The notes below the pieces were generated by a model that was not told the origin of the DNA, searched no databases, and saw nothing but the letters and a program-made list of their open reading frames with translations. The translations under genes and the position numbers were made by a program. Shown here one piece after another: positions 4,435 to 63,102 of a stretch of DNA of 64,000 nucleotides; the stretch's first letter is position 1, and each line of letters opens with the position of its first letter. This stretch comes from Escherichia phage CJ20: the sequence record MT533174.1; one strand, written 5' to 3'.

Positions 4435-4596
4435 ATGGCTAAGAAAGAAGTTAAAGTTGTTGATGGCTCCTCCAAACGCGCTGGTTACAAGCGTGCGTCC
4501 AACAAGCGAATCAATCAGGTAACTGATAAACTTCAGGCTCGTGCTCGTGCGGTATTGCGTGCCGATGCAGCTTGCTTTGGTAAGCCGAAAGCATAA
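4435..4596 (+). CDS. Small basic (Lys/Arg-rich) hypothetical protein, 53 aa
   Basis: ATG 4435, stop 4594-4596, followed directly by hairpin terminator 4601-4628; below the 60-aa cut-off of the supplied ORF track. Confidence 0.4.
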   Translation: MAKKEVKVVDGSSKRAGYKRASNKRINQVTDKLQARARAVLRADAACFGKPKA

Positions 4597-4600
4597 GTTC

Positions 4601-4628
4601 AGGGACTCTTCGGAGTCCCTTTTTTATT
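4601..4628 (+). terminator. Rho-independent terminator (AGGGACTCttcgGAGTCCCT + T-run)
   Basis: GC stem with UUCG loop followed by TTTTTT. Confidence 0.6.
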
Positions 4629-4640
4629 TTCCATAAAGGG

Positions 4641-4670
4641 GTTTACAACAGGGTTTGACCAGTGCATAAT
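4641..4670 (+). promoter_or_regulatory. Early-type promoter (GTTTACA, 18 nt, CATAAT) with leader shared with 27807-27836
   Basis: Motif; a 24-nt stretch ATAATGATTCCATACTGAGTTAC is identical at both sites. Confidence 0.5.
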
Positions 4671-4711
4671 GATTCCATACTGAGTTACACAATAAAACAC
4701 TGGAGAATAAA

Positions 4712-5080
4712 ATGAAAATCAATCTTAACTCATACATCAAAGGTAAAGACCACGACGGTTACAAAGCCATTGAAACTAAAGAAATGCAATGGCACTTGTA
4801 TAAAGAACAGTTTGAATTCGTTTCTTGTATGACTCCAGAAGGTCCTTCTGATGACTTCTCCTGGAAAATTATGGTAACAAACTTTTTTACTGGTGATACC
4901 TACGAACTGAAAACTTTGATTCTTGGCAAGATTCGTTGTAAGACCTATGAAGATGAAGAAACTGGTTATTCTGAAGATGTTACATGGTATCAAAATGGTC
5001 GCACCACTGCTGATGATTTGATTGAAAAAATGAAAGCTAAGGGTGAATTAAATTTAGATAATTGGATTAAAGTCGCATAA
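4712..5080 (+). CDS. Hypothetical early protein
   Basis: 122-aa ORF; SD CTGGAG; early promoter-like element 4641-4670. Confidence 0.55.
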   Translation: MKINLNSYIKGKDHDGYKAIETKEMQWHLYKEQFEFVSCMTPEGPSDDFSWKIMVTNFFTGDTYELKTLILGKIRCKTYEDEETGYSEDVTWYQNGRTTADDLIEKMKAKGELNLDNWIKVA

Positions 5081-5084
5081 AACA

Positions 5085-5124
5085 GTTTACTTTGGTACAG
5101 GTTATGATATTATAGACCTGTACC
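5085..5124 (+). promoter_or_regulatory. Early promoter with -10 inside a stem-loop (PeSL-like)
   Basis: GTTTAC 5085-5090, TATTAT 5108-5113, inverted repeat GGTACAGG (5094-5101) / CCTGTACC (5117-5124). Confidence 0.5.
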
Positions 5125-6036: not shown

Positions 6037-6249
6037 ATGTTTAAGAAACTGATTCAGAAAATTTTGGGAACAGAAATGGTTGAAGTTACTTATCGCGTAA
6101 CTGACGTGAGTCCATGGGCCCGAAATATTGAACCATATACTAAAACAATTAAAATGCTGAAATCTGACGGTGGATTATCTATTAAAGACCGTCTACCTGG
6201 TTATGGTCATTGGGCTGATGTAGATATTATCAGCGTCAAAGATATTTAA
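6037..6249 (+). CDS. Hypothetical small protein, paralog A
   Basis: 70 aa; clearly paralogous to the adjacent 6259-6471 ORF (shared motifs EMVEVTYRV, IISVKD). Confidence 0.5.
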   Translation: MFKKLIQKILGTEMVEVTYRVTDVSPWARNIEPYTKTIKMLKSDGGLSIKDRLPGYGHWADVDIISVKDI

Positions 6250-6258
6250 GGAACCTTC

Positions 6259-6471
6259 ATGATTAAGAAATTATTTAAAAAGCTGTTTGGCTTGGAAATG
6301 GTTGAAGTTACTTATCGTGTTATTGATTTATCACCTCCATATGCTTGTGATGAAGATGCTATTAAGACTGTTGTAATGCGAAAAACATATCGCGGGCGGT
6401 CAATTAAATCCAGATTACCGGACCACGGTATGTGGTATGCAACCAAGATTATCAGTGTCAAAGATGTCTGA
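6259..6471 (+). CDS. Hypothetical small protein, paralog B
   Basis: 70 aa; tandem paralog of 6037-6249. Confidence 0.5.
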   Translation: MIKKLFKKLFGLEMVEVTYRVIDLSPPYACDEDAIKTVVMRKTYRGRSIKSRLPDHGMWYATKIISVKDV

Positions 6472-11743: not shown

Positions 11744-12034
11744 ATGAAATCATCTTTTCGCTTTAATGGTCAGGAACTGGTAGTTGAGAATGTTATCCCG
11801 GCTTCAGAAGAGTTTGACAGCGCGGTGGGTAATGAACTGCGGCGCGTGTTTGGCGAAGATAAGAAGTTTGACCTTCGCCCTGTTGAAAACTTTGTAAATT
11901 CTGAACAAACAGAAAATATTTTTAATGGTGTAGTAACTGGGCAACTTGAATCTGAAGCACCAATTGCAATTACAGTATTTGTTAAGAAAGAAGCTGTCAT
12001 GACTGCAACAGGTTTCATTTCATTCCGCAAATAA
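11744..12034 (+). CDS. Hypothetical protein (alt-adjacent)
   Basis: ATG 11744 with SD GAGGA; early promoter-like GTTTACA at 11684; terminator follows. Confidence 0.5.
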   Translation: MKSSFRFNGQELVVENVIPASEEFDSAVGNELRRVFGEDKKFDLRPVENFVNSEQTENIFNGVVTGQLESEAPIAITVFVKKEAVMTATGFISFRK

Positions 12035-12065
12035 AAAAGGGACCTTCGGGTCCCTTTCTTTTTAT
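12034..12065. terminator. Bidirectional terminator between convergent ORF 11744 (+) and gp54 (-)
   Basis: AAAAAAGGGACCttcgGGTCCCTTTCTTTTT; A-run and T-run flank the stem. Confidence 0.65.
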
Positions 12066-18914: not shown

Positions 18915-19304
18915 ATGAATATAAACAAAATGTATAGCGATGTATCTCCTGACTTGTCAATGAGTTGGGATAAAGACGTTGCTAAAGTAACTGGCGCAAG
19001 GTCCGTTAAGAACAGCCTTCTGGGAATAATCACCACAAGAAAAGGGTCAAGGCCTTTTATGCCTGAATTTGGATGTGATATAAGTAATCAGCTTTTTGAG
19101 AATATCACTCCATTAATCACAGATACCATTAAACGCAACATCGTCTCCGCGGTGCGGAACTTCGAACCGAGGATAAGCAATCTACAGGTTGCAGTTGTCC
19201 CTATGTATGATGATAACTCCATTATCGTAACGGTTCAGTTCAGCATTGTTGATGACCCTGATACCCTCGAACAAATCAGGATTCAGCTAAGTCAAAACGG
19301 TTAA
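18915..19304 (+). CDS. 25: Baseplate wedge subunit (gp25, lysozyme-fold)
   Basis: 129 aa; strong similarity to recalled T4 gp25 (SLLGIITTRKGSRPFxPEFGCD, VRNxEPRI). Confidence 0.9.
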   Translation: MNINKMYSDVSPDLSMSWDKDVAKVTGARSVKNSLLGIITTRKGSRPFMPEFGCDISNQLFENITPLITDTIKRNIVSAVRNFEPRISNLQVAVVPMYDDNSIIVTVQFSIVDDPDTLEQIRIQLSQNG

Positions 19305-19340
19305 TGCTTTAATTTTATGGCTGTATAATGGTTCTAGACC
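19303..19340 (+). promoter_or_regulatory. Middle promoter (MotA box ATGCTTTA, 12 nt, TATAAT) plus conserved GGTTCTAGACC, upstream of uvsY
   Basis: Motif. Confidence 0.55.
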
Positions 19341-22616: not shown

Positions 22617-23465
22617 ATGGCTTATACCGTAACTATTGCTCCTTTGGCGGCTACGGCCGTTATTGGAGCAACAACCAATTTCACTGCGACCGGTTCCGGT
22701 GCTGCAGCTGAAGGTACCGAATCATTTGTCTGGACCGTTGATGGCGTTCCTCAATCTTCTGTGACTGCTGCAATGGATTATGTTGCTGTTGGTCCAGCAG
22801 GCAGTAAGACTATTAAAGTTGTTGCAACAACTACACCAGCGGACGGCGGACCAGAAACAGCTGAAGCCGAAACAACTTTAACTATCCAGAATAAAACAAT
22901 GTCTGGTGTTTCTGTGACATTAACCCCAGCTTCGATTAATGTTCCGGAAGACACCATAGCTTCATTTAAAGCAGATGTAGTTGGCGCACCGAGTGGAGCT
23001 ACTTTTGCCTATTCTTGGAAGAAAGACGGTTCTCCTGTAGTTGGCACCACGGATACTTTAGCAATCGATACAAGCGCCGAAGGTTCCCAGTTAATTGAAG
23101 TTTCTGTTGTTGTATCTGCTACAGATTATAATCCTGTTACAGTTACCAAAACCGGTAATGTAACTATCACAGCCAAAGTCGCGCCAGTTCCAGAGGGTGA
23201 ACTACCTTACGTTCATCCGCTGCCAGTTCGTAATTCAGCTTATATCTGGTGTGGTTGGTGGGTTATGGACGAAATTCAGAAAATGACTCTTGCTGGGCAA
23301 GACTGGAAAACTGATGCTCCAGATAGCCCGTATTATTTGCACCGATATACCCTTCAAAAAATGATTACCGACTATCCAGAGGTTGATGTACAGGAATCTC
23401 GTAATGGTCGAATTATTCATCGCACCGCTTTAGAAGCTGGTATTATATACGATTACGTTTATTAA
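22617..23465 (+). CDS. hoc: Hoc-like outer capsid decoration protein (Ig-like repeats)
   Basis: 282 aa; T/A/V-rich repeated beta-type segments; position as in T4; shorter than T4 Hoc. Confidence 0.7.
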   Translation: MAYTVTIAPLAATAVIGATTNFTATGSGAAAEGTESFVWTVDGVPQSSVTAAMDYVAVGPAGSKTIKVVATTTPADGGPETAEAETTLTIQNKTMSGVSVTLTPASINVPEDTIASFKADVVGAPSGATFAYSWKKDGSPVVGTTDTLAIDTSAEGSQLIEVSVVVSATDYNPVTVTKTGNVTITAKVAPVPEGELPYVHPLPVRNSAYIWCGWWVMDEIQKMTLAGQDWKTDAPDSPYYLHRYTLQKMITDYPEVDVQESRNGRIIHRTALEAGIIYDYVY

Positions 23466-23467
23466 TT

Positions 23468-23497
23468 AAAAAGGGACCTTCGGGTCCCTTTGTTTTT
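23468..23497 (+). terminator. Rho-independent terminator after hoc
   Basis: AAAAAGGGACCttcgGGTCCCTTTGTTTTT; stem identical to the 12036-12060 hairpin. Confidence 0.65.
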
Positions 23498-23534
23498 ATG
23501 GTACTGTACAAACGTTGCCTGGCATAAAAACCCT

Positions 23535-23785: not shown

Positions 23786-24045
23786 CATTTGCAGAAGAAC
23801 TACGCCAAATAGCCAAAGAGTCACAAGATAAAGTTGCAAATGACTTTATTGCTATATTTCGCAAAGTGGCTATTGCCGCTGCCGAGAATGGCAAAGATGC
23901 TGTTAATATGGCAGTTTCTGAAAAAGAGTATGAAGAAGGAAACCGTGCAAAGATATCTGAATTTCTGCGGGCAGAAAAATTTACATCATTTACCTGGAAT
24001 TATGACTGGCAAGAAGCCAAGCCCATGCTGTATGTAAAATTCTGA
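23782..24045 (+). CDS. Hypothetical protein
   Basis: 87-aa ORF overlapping previous stop. Confidence 0.45.
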   Translation: MTFAEELRQIAKESQDKVANDFIAIFRKVAIAAAENGKDAVNMAVSEKEYEEGNRAKISEFLRAEKFTSFTWNYDWQEAKPMLYVKF

Positions 24046-24050
24046 CCCTT

Positions 24051-24090
24051 TTTGCTTCAAATAAAAATGCGGTATAATGGTTCTAGACCC
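24051..24090 (+). promoter_or_regulatory. Middle promoter (TTTGCTTCA, 13 nt, TATAAT) plus GGTTCTAGACC, upstream of rnlB
   Basis: Motif. Confidence 0.55.
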
Positions 24091-25182: not shown

Positions 25183-25212
25183 AAAAAGGGCCGCAAGGCC
25201 CTTATTCTTTTT
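25183..25212. terminator. Bidirectional terminator between rnlB (+) and gp24 paralog (-)
   Basis: AAAAAAAGGGCCgcaaGGCCCTTATTCTTTTT. Confidence 0.6.
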
Positions 25213-26485
25213 CCAGTGGTGGAAGTTTAACACCAAGATAAGAACTCAATTGGCTTTGGTTAGCCATCTTATCCATATCAGCCCCATCAATAAGGCGGGC
25301 TTCTTTATCATCTTTAGCAACGGTGTAGGGGTTAGCTGTCAAAGCATAACGAGCTAACAGTGCAACCGTAGGCTGTAAGCTTTCAGGGTCAACAATAACC
25401 TTGAATTCCCCAACCGATGTATCACCCTCATCATCAACTTCGCTAAGCCCTTCCGTATAAGGCGCATAATACAAAGATGCGACCGTCTGACCCTCGCCCA
25501 TATCCGCATTTACGCCAACAATAACATAATCGCATGGACTATTCATATCTGCATAAAGAGGCAAACCGTTCTTCAGAACACCATAGGCCAATTCATCCTG
25601 GTCTTCCTTTTTCTCAACCCAGCCAGAAGCGGCTAAAATAGCTGCACAACGGGAAGAAGCAACCGCATATGTACCAGCAAACGAAGTCTGACGTTGAACT
25701 GCAGAATTCATTTCACACATATAATAATACAGGGTTCGTGCGCGGTCCTGTGCGTTATCATATTTCGGGTCAGTGAGATTCAACACACCTTTTTCAGAAA
25801 CACCTTGTACCTTGAAGCGAGAACTAACAGTAATAAGGGATTGCAATACATCCTTATTAATTTCCTCTGCCATTTGAATGCCGAGAATATTATCGATGAA
25901 GTCTGTTGCATCGAAACCGTTTGCTTCCAGGTCCTGAGCAAGCTCGACAGTTAAAGAAGTTTTCAACTTTCTGGATTTAACTTCAGTCTGCCATTTATCG
26001 ATACGGAAACCAGCTTCAGCAATTTCAGGATGCCCCTTTTCAAATTTATCAGTGAAAGCAGCATCTGACATCATTCTTATATGTCCAGCAGCAATGGCTT
26101 CAGAAATAACTTCACCTAAATCAGTTTCGAGTGTCCCGGCAAAGGGGGAAGCTTCCAGAACTTTGAATACAACGCTTTCAAACTGAAACATATCGCCGAC
26201 TGCATAAGCTTCGTCTTTGTTCGTAAATTCTGGGATATTCTTACGCTCGAACATACCAATCTGGCCCGCGAATGTCGCTCCACCAAGATATGTCATTTTA
26301 TCATCTGGGGTCAGAACACGAACACCATACAACGCTGCAACAGGCTGGGTAGTTTTCTGTTCGGCAACGAGTGCTTTAAAAATTCGTTTATTCGTGGCCT
26401 GGGTATAAGAAAGCAAATTAGGACGGGCGACCTGGTTGGCCGCCGTTAATGTTGATTCGTGAATTAGTGCGTTAATCTTTTGCAT
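25202..26485 (-). CDS. Capsid vertex protein gp24, divergent paralog
   Basis: 427 aa; roughly half the residues align with the adjacent gp24 ORF and with T4 gp24/gp23-fold motifs (QPVAALYGV, SRKLKT, TVELAQDLEANGF, EINKDVLQSLITVS, YAPYTEG, ANPYTVAKDDKEAR); ATG directly follows stop of upstream gp24 (TAAATG). Confidence 0.85.
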   Translation of the reverse strand: MQKINALIHESTLTAANQVARPNLLSYTQATNKRIFKALVAEQKTTQPVAALYGVRVLTPDDKMTYLGGATFAGQIGMFERKNIPEFTNKDEAYAVGDMFQFESVVFKVLEASPFAGTLETDLGEVISEAIAAGHIRMMSDAAFTDKFEKGHPEIAEAGFRIDKWQTEVKSRKLKTSLTVELAQDLEANGFDATDFIDNILGIQMAEEINKDVLQSLITVSSRFKVQGVSEKGVLNLTDPKYDNAQDRARTLYYYMCEMNSAVQRQTSFAGTYAVASSRCAAILAASGWVEKKEDQDELAYGVLKNGLPLYADMNSPCDYVIVGVNADMGEGQTVASLYYAPYTEGLSEVDDEGDTSVGEFKVIVDPESLQPTVALLARYALTANPYTVAKDDKEARLIDGADMDKMANQSQLSSYLGVKLPPLEKE

Positions 26486-27766
26486 TTACGCCTCATAAAT
26501 GATTGGCGGAAGTTTAACACCGAGCAGATAAGACATATTGCTCTGGCCGGCCATTAAATCCATATTAGTTGCATCGATAATACGAGCTTCTTTGTCGTCT
26601 TTAGCAACGGTGTAAGGGTTAGCTGAAAGTGCATATCGAACCATCAGGGAGATAGATGGCTGCAAACTGTCTGGGTCCACAATGACCTTAAACGCACCTA
26701 CGTGTTCTTCATCATCTAAGTCCAGGCCTTCGGTATAAGGAGCATAGAAGATTGAGCCTACGACTTCGTTTCCACCGTAATTTTCTTTAACGCCAACGGT
26801 TACATAATCCAATGGACTGTTAACATCACAGAATACAGGAAGACCATTAATCAAATAACCGTACGCTGTTTCAGGAAGCCATTGCTCGTCTTCAGGTTTA
26901 TGCTTCAGCCAGCCAGAACCAGCCAACATAGCAGCAACACGGCTAGAGGCAACAACAAAGGTACCGGAATAAGATGTAGTTTTCTGAATTTCGGAGTTCA
27001 TTTCGCAAACCAGTTCGTACAGTTTACGTGCACCTTCTGGAGCTGCATCATATGTTAAATCGATGGTGCCATTGTCAGAAACGCCAGTTACTTTATAACG
27101 CTTGGAAACGGTAATAAGAGACTGAAGAACATCTTTGTTAATTTCATCTGCCATAATAGTGGCAAGCAGGTCTTCCAAGAAAGCAGGAGCGTTAAACCCA
27201 TTTGCTTCCATATCCTGAGCAAGTTCAACAGTTAGTGCAGTTTTCAATTTACGTGTTTTAACCGGAGCATTCCATTTATTAACCTGGAATACAGCATTAC
27301 TAATCTCAACATCACCGGCTTCAAATTTCTCGGTGTGTGCCGCATCAGGAACCAAACGAATGGTTAATGCAATAAGACCTTCTTGCAGAACATCAGATAA
27401 CACTGTTTCTTTGGTCGATGCAAATGGATTATCAACCAGAGCTTTATAAACGGTATTTTGATATTTTACATATTCACCTTTAGCTACAGGCTGAGTGGCT
27501 GTAGTTAATTCTGGAATAGTTGTACGGTCTTTAGAACCGACTTCGCCACCATAAGTAGCACCAGTCTGGAAACTGAATTCATTATCAGGAGTAAGATATT
27601 TAACACCGTACAGAGCCGCAACTGGCTGGTTAGTACGTTGTTCAGCGATAATATCGCGGTAAATCAATTTGGTTGTAGCACGGGTCAAAGCAACAAGATT
27701 CGGGCGGCCCAAGGAGTTGCTGGTAGTGGTAGTTGACTCGCGCAGTAATTTGTTAATCTTTGCCAT
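26486..27766 (-). CDS. 24: Capsid vertex protein gp24 (T4-like ortholog)
   Basis: 426 aa; high similarity to recalled T4 gp24 (MAKINxLLRESTTTxSNSxGRPNLVALTRATTKLIY...); TATAAATA on - strand at 27793-27800. Confidence 0.92.
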   Translation of the reverse strand: MAKINKLLRESTTTTSNSLGRPNLVALTRATTKLIYRDIIAEQRTNQPVAALYGVKYLTPDNEFSFQTGATYGGEVGSKDRTTIPELTTATQPVAKGEYVKYQNTVYKALVDNPFASTKETVLSDVLQEGLIALTIRLVPDAAHTEKFEAGDVEISNAVFQVNKWNAPVKTRKLKTALTVELAQDMEANGFNAPAFLEDLLATIMADEINKDVLQSLITVSKRYKVTGVSDNGTIDLTYDAAPEGARKLYELVCEMNSEIQKTTSYSGTFVVASSRVAAMLAGSGWLKHKPEDEQWLPETAYGYLINGLPVFCDVNSPLDYVTVGVKENYGGNEVVGSIFYAPYTEGLDLDDEEHVGAFKVIVDPDSLQPSISLMVRYALSANPYTVAKDDKEARIIDATNMDLMAGQSNMSYLLGVKLPPIIYEA

Positions 27767-27792
27767 TTGCGCTTTCCTTTTGTGATATACTT

Positions 27793-27800
27793 TATTTATA
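27793..27800 (-). promoter_or_regulatory. Late promoter core TATAAATA upstream of gene 24
   Basis: Octamer on - strand about 27 nt upstream of gp24 ATG. Confidence 0.5.
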
Positions 27801-27806
27801 AAAGTT

Positions 27807-27836
27807 GTTTACAACCCGATTAAGATAAGACATAAT
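27807..27836 (+). promoter_or_regulatory. Early-type promoter (GTTTACA, 17 nt, CATAAT), duplicate of the 4641 element
   Basis: Motif and 24-nt identity with 4665-4688. Confidence 0.5.
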
Positions 27837-27872
27837 GATTTCATACTGAGTTACCAAACAATGGAGTCTAAA

Positions 27873-28154
27873 ATGAACAAAGTATCTTTCCTTCGGAATA
27901 CCTTTAAAAATCTGGAAATTGAAGTTGTTGCATTGGTCAACAAATACCCAAATGGTGTTAATGGTAATGCTCTGAACAAACTAGTTAAAAAATATGAAAA
28001 CTTAGCATATGATACTGATTTTTGGTGGAATGGTAATTATTCTACTCACACCAAAGACAAATCAGGTAACTGGTTGAAACTTCAAGAGAACAGTGTTAAT
28101 TTCAGAGACCTCATCAAGCGCCGGGTAGAAGTTCATTTAAATGGTATGGTATGA
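27873..28154 (+). CDS. Hypothetical early protein on the opposite strand between genes 23 and 24
   Basis: 93 aa from ATG 27873 (SD GGAG inside the track's 27861 start); early promoter-like GTTTACA-17-CATAAT at 27807-27836; terminator 28161-28190. Confidence 0.5.
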   Translation: MNKVSFLRNTFKNLEIEVVALVNKYPNGVNGNALNKLVKKYENLAYDTDFWWNGNYSTHTKDKSGNWLKLQENSVNFRDLIKRRVEVHLNGMV

Positions 28155-28160
28155 AAACAA

Positions 28161-28190
28161 GAAAGGGACCTCAAGGGTCCCTTTTTATTT
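28161..28190. terminator. Bidirectional terminator between ORF 27873 (+) and gene 23 (-)
   Basis: GAAAGGGACCtcaaGGGTCCCTTTTTATTT with A-rich 5' flank. Confidence 0.6.
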
Positions 28191-28204
28191 AACTTAATCT
28201 AAGA

Positions 28205-34204: not shown

Positions 34205-34255
34205 CCGTAGAACCGATTATGCTTTTATTTATAACACTGTATAATGGTTCTACGG
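34205..34255. promoter_or_regulatory. Palindromic element: MotA-box/TATAAT motif on + strand, TATAAATA on - strand (34226-34233), enclosed by 10-bp inverted repeat
   Basis: CCGTAGAACC (34205-34214) / GGTTCTACGG (34246-34255); TGCTTTTA 34220-34227 and TATAAT 34240-34245 on +. Confidence 0.4.
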
Positions 34256-47804: not shown

Positions 47805-47832
47805 AAATAAAAAAGGGACCCGAAGGTCCCTA
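47804..47832 (-). terminator. Terminator after gene 8
   Basis: GGGACCcgaaGGTCCC hairpin; T-run on - strand. Confidence 0.55.
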
Positions 47833-47833
47833 G

Positions 47834-48838
47834 TTAGAATTCAAAAATAATATTTACTTCTTCGGTTTGGTCCATTGCACGATAAACAGGTGGCCTGTTT
47901 TCCATGTAAATCATTTCACCAGAATGTCGACTCAAATCAATAGCATCATAATATTCCTTTGTTGCTTTGATGTTTGGGTCATTAGGAGCAGCTTTAATTT
48001 CCAGAGGGTTAGCGACAATTGAAATCTGTCTAAAACCTTTGTTACCTGGAAGACTGAACTGAGGAAAATAAATCGAATCCATGAAAGCCTTGAAACGAAT
48101 TGTATTACCCTTGATACGATAGATTAAACCATAATCATTTTGCTGCCATGTCAGGTTATCTTTGTACCCCCAACGTTCTGGGTCTTCTGCAATTTCTTCT
48201 GGCCATGGAACAACGATATATTCGTTTGTGCAGCGGTTAATGGATACGTCAGGTGGAATCTCATAGAGATATTCCCAGAGATAGCCATCACCCATATCAA
48301 CACGTCCTTCAGTATCGCCAGTCCCTGATGGAGCCCGGCTGGAAGCATAGTCTGAAGTCCATTTACCACCAAGCTTAAGACATTCTTGCTTATTAGTGAT
48401 GGAATAAATCGAACAAGTACCAGATTCAGGAACATCCACACAACGATAAACCATCCAACCTTTACCAACATCAGTTCGGTTATATGGTGCGGTATTACTT
48501 ACGACAATTTCGCCAATCTGGAAGTTCAGCGGGTTAGGATAACGAACATCACCCCAATCCTTACGAGGAACCACGCAGTCAAGCATGGATTTATACACCT
48601 TGACTGCTCCCATCATATTAGTCCAAACATCTTCAACACCTTGAGCATCATCAACCGGATAAGGTGGAGCAAACCCCGGGTCGTTCTCGTTTGCAGCCCA
48701 TGGTTCTGCACGACCGAACGTGACATACATTGTATTTTCAGTGGCGCTATCCCCGATAGCGCCGTAAAAGTTATACATTTTTTCCGTTCTGAATTTTGAT
48801 GTAACAATCGAACGGTAAACTACGGTAGAGTTATTCAT
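47834..48838 (-). CDS. 8: Baseplate wedge subunit
   Basis: 334 aa (same as T4 gp8). Confidence 0.82.
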   Translation of the reverse strand: MNNSTVVYRSIVTSKFRTEKMYNFYGAIGDSATENTMYVTFGRAEPWAANENDPGFAPPYPVDDAQGVEDVWTNMMGAVKVYKSMLDCVVPRKDWGDVRYPNPLNFQIGEIVVSNTAPYNRTDVGKGWMVYRCVDVPESGTCSIYSITNKQECLKLGGKWTSDYASSRAPSGTGDTEGRVDMGDGYLWEYLYEIPPDVSINRCTNEYIVVPWPEEIAEDPERWGYKDNLTWQQNDYGLIYRIKGNTIRFKAFMDSIYFPQFSLPGNKGFRQISIVANPLEIKAAPNDPNIKATKEYYDAIDLSRHSGEMIYMENRPPVYRAMDQTEEVNIIFEF

Positions 48839-61728: not shown

Positions 61729-61729
<1 letters not shown>

Positions 61730-61768
61730 TGTACAAATGAGTGTAGGTGCAGTATTATGCTCCTACAC
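61729..61768 (+). promoter_or_regulatory. Promoter/stem-loop cassette (GTGTAC, 18 nt, TATTAT in hairpin loop) upstream of first IP-like gene
   Basis: Inverted repeat GTGTAGG (61741-61747) / CCTACAC (61762-61768). Confidence 0.45.
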
Positions 61769-61789
61769 CAACGAACAAACGGAGTTAAA

Positions 61790-62411: not shown

Positions 62412-62711
62412 ATGCAAACTTTTCATGAATTTTTGGTAGAAAACAATTACCTGGCGGAAGCAAAAACCTGGCCTCTGGGTCTTCAGAAGAAAAACACCTA
62501 TAAATGGGTTGACTTCAAAGGTAAAGGCGACGCTGAAGACTTTGACCAGCTGCGTAAAAATGGTTATACCTTCCTTGACTCTAACTATAACAAAATTACC
62601 TCTTTTAGTCAGAAGTCAAGCATTGCCTTCATTGAAACTGGTAAGAACTCTCCTAAAGATATTTCTGACGACTTCGCCGCTTATGGTGTAATTCGTGGTT
62701 CAAAAATGTAA
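62412..62711 (+). CDS. Internal-protein-like (IP) protein with capsid-targeting sequence
   Basis: N-terminus MQTFHEFLVE. Confidence 0.6.
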   Translation: MQTFHEFLVENNYLAEAKTWPLGLQKKNTYKWVDFKGKGDAEDFDQLRKNGYTFLDSNYNKITSFSQKSSIAFIETGKNSPKDISDDFAAYGVIRGSKM

Positions 62712-62749
62712 TGTACATGATGGGATAGTTGCAGTATAATTATCCCATC
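62711..62749 (+). promoter_or_regulatory. Promoter/stem-loop cassette (ATGTAC, 18 nt, TATAAT in hairpin loop)
   Basis: Inverted repeat GATGGGATA (62719-62727) / TATCCCATC (62741-62749). Confidence 0.45.
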
Positions 62750-62766
62750 AACTACTGGAGCTACTA

Positions 62767-63045
62767 ATGAAAACTTATCAAGAATTTATTAACGAATCAA
62801 TTAGTCACCCGGATATGCTGGAAGACCTGAAAGGACATCTGATGGTTAAGGCCAAACCGGTTGATGGTGGCGCATTTGAGTTGTTTCTTGTTAAAGGCGA
62901 AAACGGTCCTGATAACAAGAAAGTTTCAGCAATGATGTTGACTAAAGGTTACAAAGTCAGTTCTTCCTGGAATGCTCCATTCACTTACGCGGTAAGCCCT
63001 CGTGAACTGAAAAAAGTTAAAGCTGGACAATATACAAAAATTTAG
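62767..63045 (+). CDS. Internal-protein-like (IP) protein with capsid-targeting sequence
   Basis: N-terminus MKTYQEFINE, nearly identical to the T4 IP targeting sequence. Confidence 0.65.
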   Translation: MKTYQEFINESISHPDMLEDLKGHLMVKAKPVDGGAFELFLVKGENGPDNKKVSAMMLTKGYKVSSSWNAPFTYAVSPRELKKVKAGQYTKI

Positions 63046-63083
63046 TGTACGTGATGGGATAGTTGTAGTATGATTATCTCATC
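63045..63083 (+). promoter_or_regulatory. Promoter/stem-loop cassette (GTGTAC, 18 nt, TATGAT in hairpin loop)
   Basis: Inverted repeat GATGGGATA (63053-63061) / TATCTCATC (63075-63083), one mismatch. Confidence 0.45.
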
Positions 63084-63102
63084 AACTACTGAGGAGAATA
63101 AA

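Follow-up and report, generated by a model that had tools for sequence, protein, structure and literature searches.

The genomes of T4-like phages carry promoter-early stem-loops (PeSLs), promoter-terminator cassettes (Arbiol et al. 2010; Comeau et al. 2014) in which AT-rich DNA is combined with an early promoter that is sigma-70-like (in T4/PST, TTTACW-N17-TAYWAT), an adjacent or overlapping stem-loop, and a Shine-Dalgarno sequence (SD) with ATG (PMC2839356, PMC4122927). PeSLs are present in multiple copies in hyperplastic regions, by ORFans, with crossovers mapped between the -10 element and the ATG, and for RB49/phi1 both promoter/terminator activity and the formation of mini-circles have been shown by experiment (PMC2839356, PMC4122927). 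The early promoters of T4 have strong UP, -35, TGn and -10 elements (Hinton 2010, PMC2988021; Nolan et al. 2006, PMC1524935), GTTTAC being the typical -35 (PMC2988021, PMC1524935); what is said below on the T4 early-promoter consensus rests on these two papers. The present study analyzes two putative early promoters with their leaders in a 64,000-nt stretch of the genome of Escherichia phage CJ20 (MT533174.1), here called the window. One precedes gene 30.8 (locus 1) and the other precedes a small open reading frame (ORF) in the gap between genes 24 and 23 (locus 2), and a preliminary description had singled out the two as a duplicated promoter and leader.

Patterns detected make it likely that this pair and its relatives form a genome-wide family of T4-type immediate-early promoter/leader cassettes, PeSL-like in build, in the genus Gaprivervirus. 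The family is a Gaprivervirus-specific version of a known promoter-terminator element, the PeSL, and leaves current understanding unchanged. No description of this sequence version was found in the two PeSL papers (PMC2839356, PMC4122927), and a literature search on VR7 promoters gave no paper. With the Gaprivervirus T4-like coliphages VR7, P896, VR20, VR25 and SP18 the window shares 95-97% identity; its gene map was taken from the VR7 annotation.

Locus 1 reads GTTTAC(4641-4646)-aacagggtttgaccagtg-CATAAT(4665-4670)-GATTCCATACTGAGTTAC(4671-4688)-acaataaaacactGGAGaataaaATG(4712) and lies between gene 30.9 (4435-4596) and gene 30.8 on the + strand, the "early" strand of T4. Locus 2, some 23 kb away on the window, reads GTTTAC(27807-27812)-aacccgattaagataaga-CATAAT(27831-27836)-GATTTCATACTGAGTTAC(27837-27854)-caaacaatGGAGtctaaaATG(27873) and separates the start of late gene 24 (minus strand, 26486-27766) from a small ORF on the + strand. 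The string GTTTACAAC, described earlier as common to both, is indeed present in exact copies (4641-4649 and 27807-27815). The stretch described as 24 identical nucleotides aligns at 23 of 24 positions (CATAATGATT[C/T]CATACTGAGTTAC, 4665-4688 against 27831-27854); the sole mismatch is C4675 at locus 1 against T27841 at locus 2, and on either side of it identity is unbroken for 10 nt (CATAATGATT) and 13 nt (CATACTGAGTTAC). The string quoted for that stretch, ATAATGATTCCATACTGAGTTAC, is itself 23 nt long rather than 24, and is found at 4666-4688 and, with one mismatch, at 27832-27854. A repeat search of the window returned the pair as a 31-nt repeat of 87% identity, and none of 100 dinucleotide-preserving shuffles of the window held a match to the 23-nt string at three or fewer mismatches. 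GTTTAC and CATAAT are 18 nt apart at both loci, with GTTTACAAC equally far from the -10 in each, and beyond a shared AC the spacers are unrelated, matching at 4 of 15 positions. The downstream proteins are also unrelated, as had been claimed (BLASTP between gp30.8 and the 93-aa product of the small ORF, E=3.7), the latter being a protein of unknown function (phrog_6003).

Further copies proved to be numerous, 11 of them in the VR7 genome, and the pair first noticed represents only a small part of a family spread over the genome. By BLAST, a 36-nt query taken round locus 1 found 9-14 places per Gaprivervirus genome, and T4 was not among the 38 records that it matched. All 11 VR7 copies of (C/T)ATAAT-GATTCCATACTGAGTTAC lie on the early strand, have a GT(G/T)TAC -35 at the standard distance, and continue with an A-rich leader, GGAG and ATG. 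Eight of the 11 stand before genes named VR7ORFxxx, that is, genes without a T4 name, an enrichment that was estimated roughly. In the window, the SD/ATG block of the type seen at loci 1 and 2 occurs four times. A census of VR7 early promoters gave 35 candidate sites with two classes of leader: class I, the majority, reading ...GATyCCATCAACTACTGa(t)GAGGA...ATG, and class II, comprising the 11 copies, reading ...GATTCCATACTGAGTTAC(C/A)AA(T)AAAAC...TGGAGAATAAAATG. Four of the class II copies have near-identical terminators on their 5' side (GGACCCTTCGGGGTCCTTTTTTATTTTAAAAAGTA or a variant), and VR7 64.7-65.6 kb is a tandem array of class II cassettes. Pairwise identity of the 24-nt block from -10 to +12 among the 35 promoters is bimodal, with the bulk at 8-16 and a second mode at 18-24, and the window pair (23/24) falls in the upper mode.

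The distribution of conservation within the cassette is uneven. Over 43 class II copies gathered from VR7, VR20, VR25, VR26, MP1 and the window, information content is near 2 bits per position from -10 to +12, falls off at the -35, and almost vanishes in the spacer. When orthologues are compared with each other, the -10 has no variable column out of 66, the 18-mer that follows it has 5 out of 198, and the spacer 18 out of 198. These fractions are approximate, because orthologue groups were set by spacer and a few non-orthologues were wrongly merged (two VR7 ATCAGTATGG... promoters, and MP1 with the ORF045c group). Orthologues of locus 1 differ in the spacer (..gggtttgacc.. in the window, ..gggttggtcc.. 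in VR7, ..gggttgggcc.. in SP18) and have a constant 24-mer.

Some copies lie outside the genus. A degenerate 22-mer used to scan IMG/VR found the isolates VR20, VR25, VR26 and MP1 alone, without any contig from a metagenome. A single class II copy is present in Tequatrovirus ESH35, and the class II copy found downstream of denB is also carried by fDHCT2, an unclassified phage. Morganella phage MP1 (Gualtarvirus) has a full cassette, with hairpin, AT-rich stretch, GTGTAC, 18-nt spacer, CATAAT, GATCCCATACTGAGTTAA, GGAG and ATG, which its annotators had marked as a MEME-derived promoter. Its spacer matches that of the non-orthologous VR7 copy before ORF045c at 15 of 18 positions, and the gene behind it has an N-terminus like that of VR7ORF145c. 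Because spacer and gene thus point to different VR7 copies, the comparison suggests that upstream and downstream halves of the cassette have been shuffled independently. The MP1 gene and VR7ORF145c (VR7 64477-64683) share the N-terminal motif K(Y)xxLALNNSSExEA, and therefore a homologous small gene stands behind a class II cassette in two genera.

The promoters are more widely distributed than the block they share. Before gene 30.8, a hairpin homologous to that of locus 1 (8 bp, 4601-4620, then a T-run, forming the stem-loop part of the cassette), a GT(T/G)TAC -35 and a -10 are found at the same place in T4, IME08 (Dhakavirus), p000v (Mosigvirus) and Marfa (Marfavirus). Between genes 24 and 23, T4, JS09 (Mosigvirus), and VR5 and MX01 (both Dhakavirus) have a promoter whose -35 is that of locus 2. 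From -10 to leader, the sequences of T4, Mosigvirus and Dhakavirus, and at locus 1 also of Marfavirus, are unlike the window, the Dhakavirus/Mosigvirus version at both loci being, e.g., TACTATAGAC... The comparison indicates that the -10/leader block was replaced or homogenised in the Gaprivervirus lineage and that the promoters are older than the block; other genera appear to have homogenised versions of their own. The proposal of a mobile regulatory cassette captured at both sites can thus be kept in part, for a multi-copy, PeSL-like family with junctions inside the block, and not for capture of whole cassettes, since promoters hold the same positions in relatives with a different -10/leader.

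Genes behind these promoters vary. T4 has the homing endonuclease gene segD behind the promoter orthologous to locus 2, and the small ORF is present there in Gaprivervirus, Dhakavirus and Mosigvirus. VR26, which is without VR7ORF146c, has instead a hybrid cassette composed of the upstream half of one VR7 cassette (A, TATAAT-TATCCC) and the downstream half of another (B, CAAATAAACAAACGGGATAATAAAATG-MKTSKL...), with the crossover inside a 22-nt identity, CCATACTGAGTTACCAAATAAA. Another change in VR26 is at the promoter downstream of denB, whose class II leader is directly followed by an extra ORF (MFTTAELKR...). At frd.2 the orthologous promoter, with the same terminator and -35 and a similar spacer, has a class I leader in VR7 and a class II leader in VR26, and the downstream genes of the two phages diverge markedly over the 50 aa compared, which places a mosaic boundary at the -10/start region. 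An additional cassette and gene (MKFIINLAL...) without counterpart in VR7 is found in VR20, VR25 and VR26. In SP18, gene 30.6A is inserted at locus 1 between the 30.9 hairpin and the promoter, joining immediately after the hairpin; because the insert ends in a second, T4-type hairpin (GACTCCTTCGGGAGTC + T-run), the junctions lie in hairpin/T-run repeats, and the case suggests that GC-rich hairpins may also be recombination substrates. Gene 30.6A itself (116 aa; 1041-1391 of the SP18 stretch compared) has an SD and lacks a promoter of its own. The window, VR7 and VR20 are without it, and several other Gaprivervirus genomes, in which the match is split in two or three pieces, probably contain it as well.

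As to promoter type, both loci fit TTTACA-N17-CATAAT, which in the promoter scan agrees with the sigma-70 consensus TTGACA-N17-TATAAT at 10 of 12 positions. Relative to the PeSL consensus of T4/PST, -35 and spacing fit at both loci and the -10 has C for the first T. Judged by the GTTTAC -35 at about -36 to -31, the A-rich UP-like region, and a -10 with A-11 and T-7, both are predicted to be T4-type early promoters, with transcription predicted to start at A4677, 7 nt past the -10, at locus 1 and at A27843 at locus 2. Features of both loci are given in Table 1.

Table 1. Predicted features of the two cassettes and their downstream genes, in window coordinates.
Locus	Feature	Position	Strand	Basis or remark
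1	Intrinsic terminator of gene 30.9	4601..4630	+	Hairpin AGGGACTCTTCGGAGTCCCT then TTTTTATTTT; terminator scan and RNA fold
1	AT-rich, UP-element-like stretch TTTTTATTTTCCATAAAGGG	4621..4640	+	From sequence; TTTTTTATTTTAAAAAGTA there in other copies
1	-35 element	4641..4647	+	T4-type GTTTAC 4641-4646; as sigma-70 TTTACA 4642-4647
1	Promoter spacer	4648..4664	+	Not conserved between copies except shared AC 4648-4649
1	-10 element CATAAT	4665..4670	+	Promoter scan; invariant within orthologue groups
1	18-mer GATTCCATACTGAGTTAC	4671..4688	+	Discriminator and initially transcribed region; near-invariant in 43 copies, with the peak of information within the cassette; VR26 crossover inside it
1	Leader remainder ACAATAAAACACT, GGAG 4702-4705, ATG 4712-4714	4689..4714	+	Sequence; leader unstructured
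1	Gene 30.8, 122 aa	4712..5080	+	PF06019, E=7e-44; VR7 annotation; behind locus-1 cassette
2	AT-rich upstream stretch TATACTTTATTTATAAAAGTT with TATTTATA (27793-27800)	27786..27806	+	Sequence; strongly conserved in T4, JS09, VR5, MX01
2	-35 element GTTTAC, as TTTACA 27808-27813	27807..27813	+	10/12
2	Promoter spacer	27814..27830	+	Unlike locus 1 except AC at 27814-27815
2	-10 element CATAAT	27831..27836	+	Promoter scan
2	18-mer GATTTCATACTGAGTTAC	27837..27854	+	One difference from locus 1, at 27841; T variant also in VR7
2	Leader remainder CAAACAAT, GGAG 27863-27866, ATG 27873-27875	27855..27875	+	Sequence
2	Small ORF, 93 aa, VR7ORF190c equivalent	27873..28154	+	Antisense between late genes 24 and 23; phrog_6003
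2	Bidirectional terminator hairpin	28160..28186	.	Closes locus-2 unit, also ends gene 23

A mechanism consistent with these patterns may be proposed. The cassette runs from an optional terminator hairpin with T-run through an AT-rich stretch, a GT(T/G)TAC -35, an 18-nt variable spacer and a (C/T)ATAAT -10 to a near-invariant GATTCCATACTGAGTTAC over the start and the first ~12 transcribed bases, and from there through a short, A-rich, unstructured leader to GGAG and ATG. Host sigma-70 RNA polymerase, unmodified or Alt-modified, would start at about A4677 and A27843 right after infection. The leader would be selected for an open state and, together with a strong SD (GGAG-N6-ATG), would allow efficient translation; GGAG would also present the motif cut by T4 RegB, and the VR7 genome annotation includes a RegB homologue. 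Comparison among relatives shows that, because the ~45-50 nt from -10 to ATG are nearly the same at many loci, the block acts as a homology patch for phage recombination, with two outcomes: concerted evolution of the -10/leader block within a lineage, and deletion, insertion or replacement of the small genes behind it. Locus 1 is a complete cassette (hairpin, promoter, SD) and locus 2 a hairpin-less copy predicted to drive a self-contained promoter-ORF-terminator unit, antisense between late genes 24 and 23. Immediate-early co-regulation of the two genes from one promoter type is plausible.

Several points weigh against this reading. Promoter activity, the starts at A4677 and A27843, and early timing are all predicted from the consensus. 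The C at -12 in CATAAT departs from the TAYWAT of the T4/PST PeSL consensus; RB49 early promoters tolerate a C there (PMC1524935). Locus 2 has no stem-loop and is at best a "half" PeSL. Gene conversion alone leaves unexplained an unrelated 18-nt spacer between two conserved blocks, and therefore some direct selection on the -10, start and leader has to be supposed as well. Finally, the support from rearrangements consists of a handful of cases from a comparison of five genomes, not of a genome-wide test of enrichment.

An alternative explanation, to which we give a small but real chance, is that the 18-mer is a specific regulatory signal marking an early sub-regulon, beyond what a strong promoter or a homology patch would need. 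Candidates include a determinant of Alt stimulation, a site for an early shut-off factor, a sigma-70 proximal pause (CATACT resembles a -10), or a stability signal at the mRNA 5' end. This would account for the finding that across 13 promoter groups conservation is higher from -10 to +12 than at the -35, and much higher than in the spacer, that the block is kept in three genera despite diverged downstream proteins, and that early promoters come in two discrete leader classes. It also fits with reports that T4 early promoters contain additional consensus regions whose role is unknown, that -35, TGn and -10 do not explain Alt stimulation in T4, and that the mechanism of early shut-off is unknown (PMC2988021). 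However, factor and pause are candidates only, and selection for promoter escape and an open 5' leader, together with recombination, could give the same pattern. Moreover, class I and class II leaders switch at the same promoter, before the same gene, in close relatives, which argues against a strict gene-specific regulon. A more far-reaching version, for which the odds are slim, is that GATTCCATACTGAGTTAC, from discriminator to +12, is a dedicated signal (Alt/ModA response, sigma-70 pause, or shut-off factor) defining a class II immediate-early regulon of mostly accessory genes that is plug-and-play between T4-like genera.

A second alternative is that the similarity reflects only a generic early-promoter consensus, the pair not being specially related, and here the composition of the 24-nt stretch is informative. 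Six of its nucleotides are the -10, the next eight are GATTCCAT, a start-site consensus found throughout the genus, and the last ten are ACTGAGTTAC, a leader specific to the class. Its opening 14 nt (CATAAT GATTCCAT) are indeed near the genus-wide early consensus, since class I promoters also have (C/T)ATAAT followed by GATTCCAT or TATCCCAT, and the bare 9-mer GTTTACAAC, allowing one mismatch, is at chance level in the window (19 found against 18.6 expected) and not over-represented. Thus a generic consensus accounts for the -10 part of the identity but does not extend to ACTGAGTTAC: ACTGAGTTAC(C/A)AA is present in 11 of the 35 VR7 early promoters and absent from the other 24. With identity bimodal, the pair in the upper mode, and no shuffled window matching, the explanation is largely refuted, and we consider it very improbable.

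It is just as hard to credit that a discrete mobile element, or a recent segmental duplication, put the whole promoter at both sites. Such an event would be expected to leave near-identical blocks before unrelated genes, here 23 kb apart, as well as the whole cassette, similar spacer included, at a non-orthologous place in the distant phage MP1. Yet the spacers of the two window copies are unrelated (4/15), neither locus has a transposase, integrase or target duplication, and the -35 with its upstream context is positionally conserved at both loci in T4, Mosigvirus and Dhakavirus, from which it follows that the promoters pre-date the shared block. Least credible of all is the shared leader structure that the preliminary description had offered. 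A common RNA fold co-regulating translation, such as a riboregulator or thermosensor, would fit with the conserved leader sequence, but minimum free energies are 0 and -2.1 kcal/mol, weaker than in shuffled sequences (z +1.5 and +1.2), indels make the copies differ in leader length, and Rfam gave 0 matches over the whole window at gathering thresholds; these results refute it.

Two other candidates were rejected. A MotA/AsiA-dependent middle promoter, in which a MotA box, (a/t)(a/t)(a/t)TGCTTtA, takes the place of the -35 at around -30, does not fit either locus, there being no TGCTT box in either spacer. A mini-ORF of four codons, ATG ATT CCA TAC TGA (4669-4683), begins 5' of the predicted start, is without an SD, and is not kept in class I promoters. 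Elsewhere on the + strand, a repeat family of the form ...TGCTT...N...TGTATAATGGTTCTA (19295-19336, 24045-24085, 34211-34252) resembles MotA-box middle promoters with an extended -10 and has a conserved GGTTCTA start region; middle promoters may also have a homogenised downstream block.

There were several further observations around the two loci. At locus 1, RNA folding shows that an 11-bp pairing is possible in read-through RNA from gene 30.9, between its tail UUUUAUUUUCC (4622-4632) and the SD region of 30.8, GGAGAAUAAAA (4702-4712); transcripts from the promoter of locus 1 itself would be without the upstream strand. Both strands of the pairing are kept in T4 and not clearly in IME08 and p000v, and the pairing may be a by-product of T-runs facing A-rich ribosome-binding sites. 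Farther along the same strand are tandem 70-aa paralogues resembling gene 30.4 (6037-6249 and 6259-6471), with 75% nucleotide identity over 68 nt; the VR7 annotation has a single 30.4 here, so one more tandem copy seems to be present in the window phage. At locus 2, TATTTATA read on the minus strand is TATAAATA, the T4 late-promoter consensus as quoted in PMC1524935, and precedes the divergent gene 24. The late promoter of gene 24 thus overlaps the AT-rich part of the early promoter, the two standing back to back, and this overlap is probably the reason that 27793-27800 is invariant from T4 to Gaprivervirus. A terminator scan found no stem-loop upstream of the locus-2 promoter, and the sharing of this region with the divergent gene-24 promoter would explain why locus 2 is without a hairpin. 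The capsid vertex gene 24 is itself present on the minus strand as two tandem paralogues, 25202-26485 and 26486-27766 (427 and 426 aa), with 72% identity over 198 nt, named 24(1) and 24(2) in VR7. The hairpin that closes the locus-2 unit is one of a near-identical, GC-rich family of hairpin terminators, AAAAAGGGACC(TTCG)GGTCCCTTT, at 12030-12065, 23464-23499, 28156-28191 and 47806-47841. Among class I early promoters, inverted repeats that flank or overlap the -10 are found at 62701-62757 and 63035-63091 (both +), 5085-5124 and 61729-61775, for example GGGATAGTTG...TATCCCATCAACT, and GGTACAGGT (5094-5102) with ACCTGTACC (5116-5124); the pair at 62.7-63.1 kb, in the region of internal-protein genes, has 89% identity over 57 nt.

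Recognition of the cassette family has several implications. Promoter-terminator cassettes are thought to drive gene shuffling in T4-like phages, and the natural recombinants put the crossover in the very motif that had been flagged. For annotation, the motif marks immediate-early genes and mosaic boundaries in coliphages relevant to therapy; for engineering, it offers a compact, strong early promoter/leader module; and for evolution, it illustrates how regulatory DNA can evolve in concert. Being conserved to excess, the first ~12 transcribed bases offer a handle on what, beyond -35, -10 and UP, makes T4 early promoters special, and on their shut-off.

Morons, as described by Hendrix and colleagues, are autonomous promoter-gene-terminator units lying between genes of the late operons of lambdoid phages. 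Locus 2 resembles them as a probably independently transcribed promoter-ORF-terminator unit between the late structural genes 24 and 23, but differs in that it runs antisense to the late operon, that the phage is T4-like and strictly lytic, and that its promoter position is old, its cargo varied (segD in T4) and its promoter part of a repeated family. A comparison of another kind is offered by T5 PN25-type promoters, strong phage sigma-70 promoters whose TATAAT precedes (A)GATTC-A(+1)T... and whose strength is affected by the bases from +1 to +20. Work by Kammerer and colleagues in 1986 reportedly showed this effect of initially transcribed ("downstream") sequence on strong phage promoters, T5 PN25 among them. 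This could be a plausible reason for selection on the 18-mer, as an analogy of mechanism only.

With the early promoters of T4 the cassettes have in common their siting 5' of both T4 orthologues and novel ORFs, a -35 of the GTTTAC type preceded by A-rich sequence, a -10 resembling TATAAT with A-11 and T-7, C at positions -3 to -1, and the predicted use of host sigma-70 polymerase. They differ in having no TGn extended -10 and a C at -12, the latter as in RB49, and in that about a third of the promoters here share an extended leader that is missing in T4 at both orthologous promoters. The cassettes also match the PeSLs. As in these, there is an AT-rich stretch that lies upstream of the -35 at both loci, an SD and ATG at the 3' end of both cassettes, N17 spacing, presence in multiple copies mostly before small non-core ORFs, and, on case evidence, indel or replacement junctions inside the element among close relatives. 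The stem-loop is present at locus 1 and not at locus 2, which for this reason is a "half" PeSL sensu Comeau et al. (PMC4122927). The arrangement of RB49 PeSLs, with inverted repeats round the -10 or the -35, is also seen in other early promoters of the window and VR7 (e.g. 5094-5102/5116-5124, and GGGGGTGTACACCCCC in VR7). What distinguishes the Gaprivervirus cassettes from described PeSLs is the genus-specific GT(G/T)TAC-N18-CATAAT with its invariant GATTCCATACTGAGTTAC, and a peak of conservation that falls on the start site and the initially transcribed bases instead of the hexamers.

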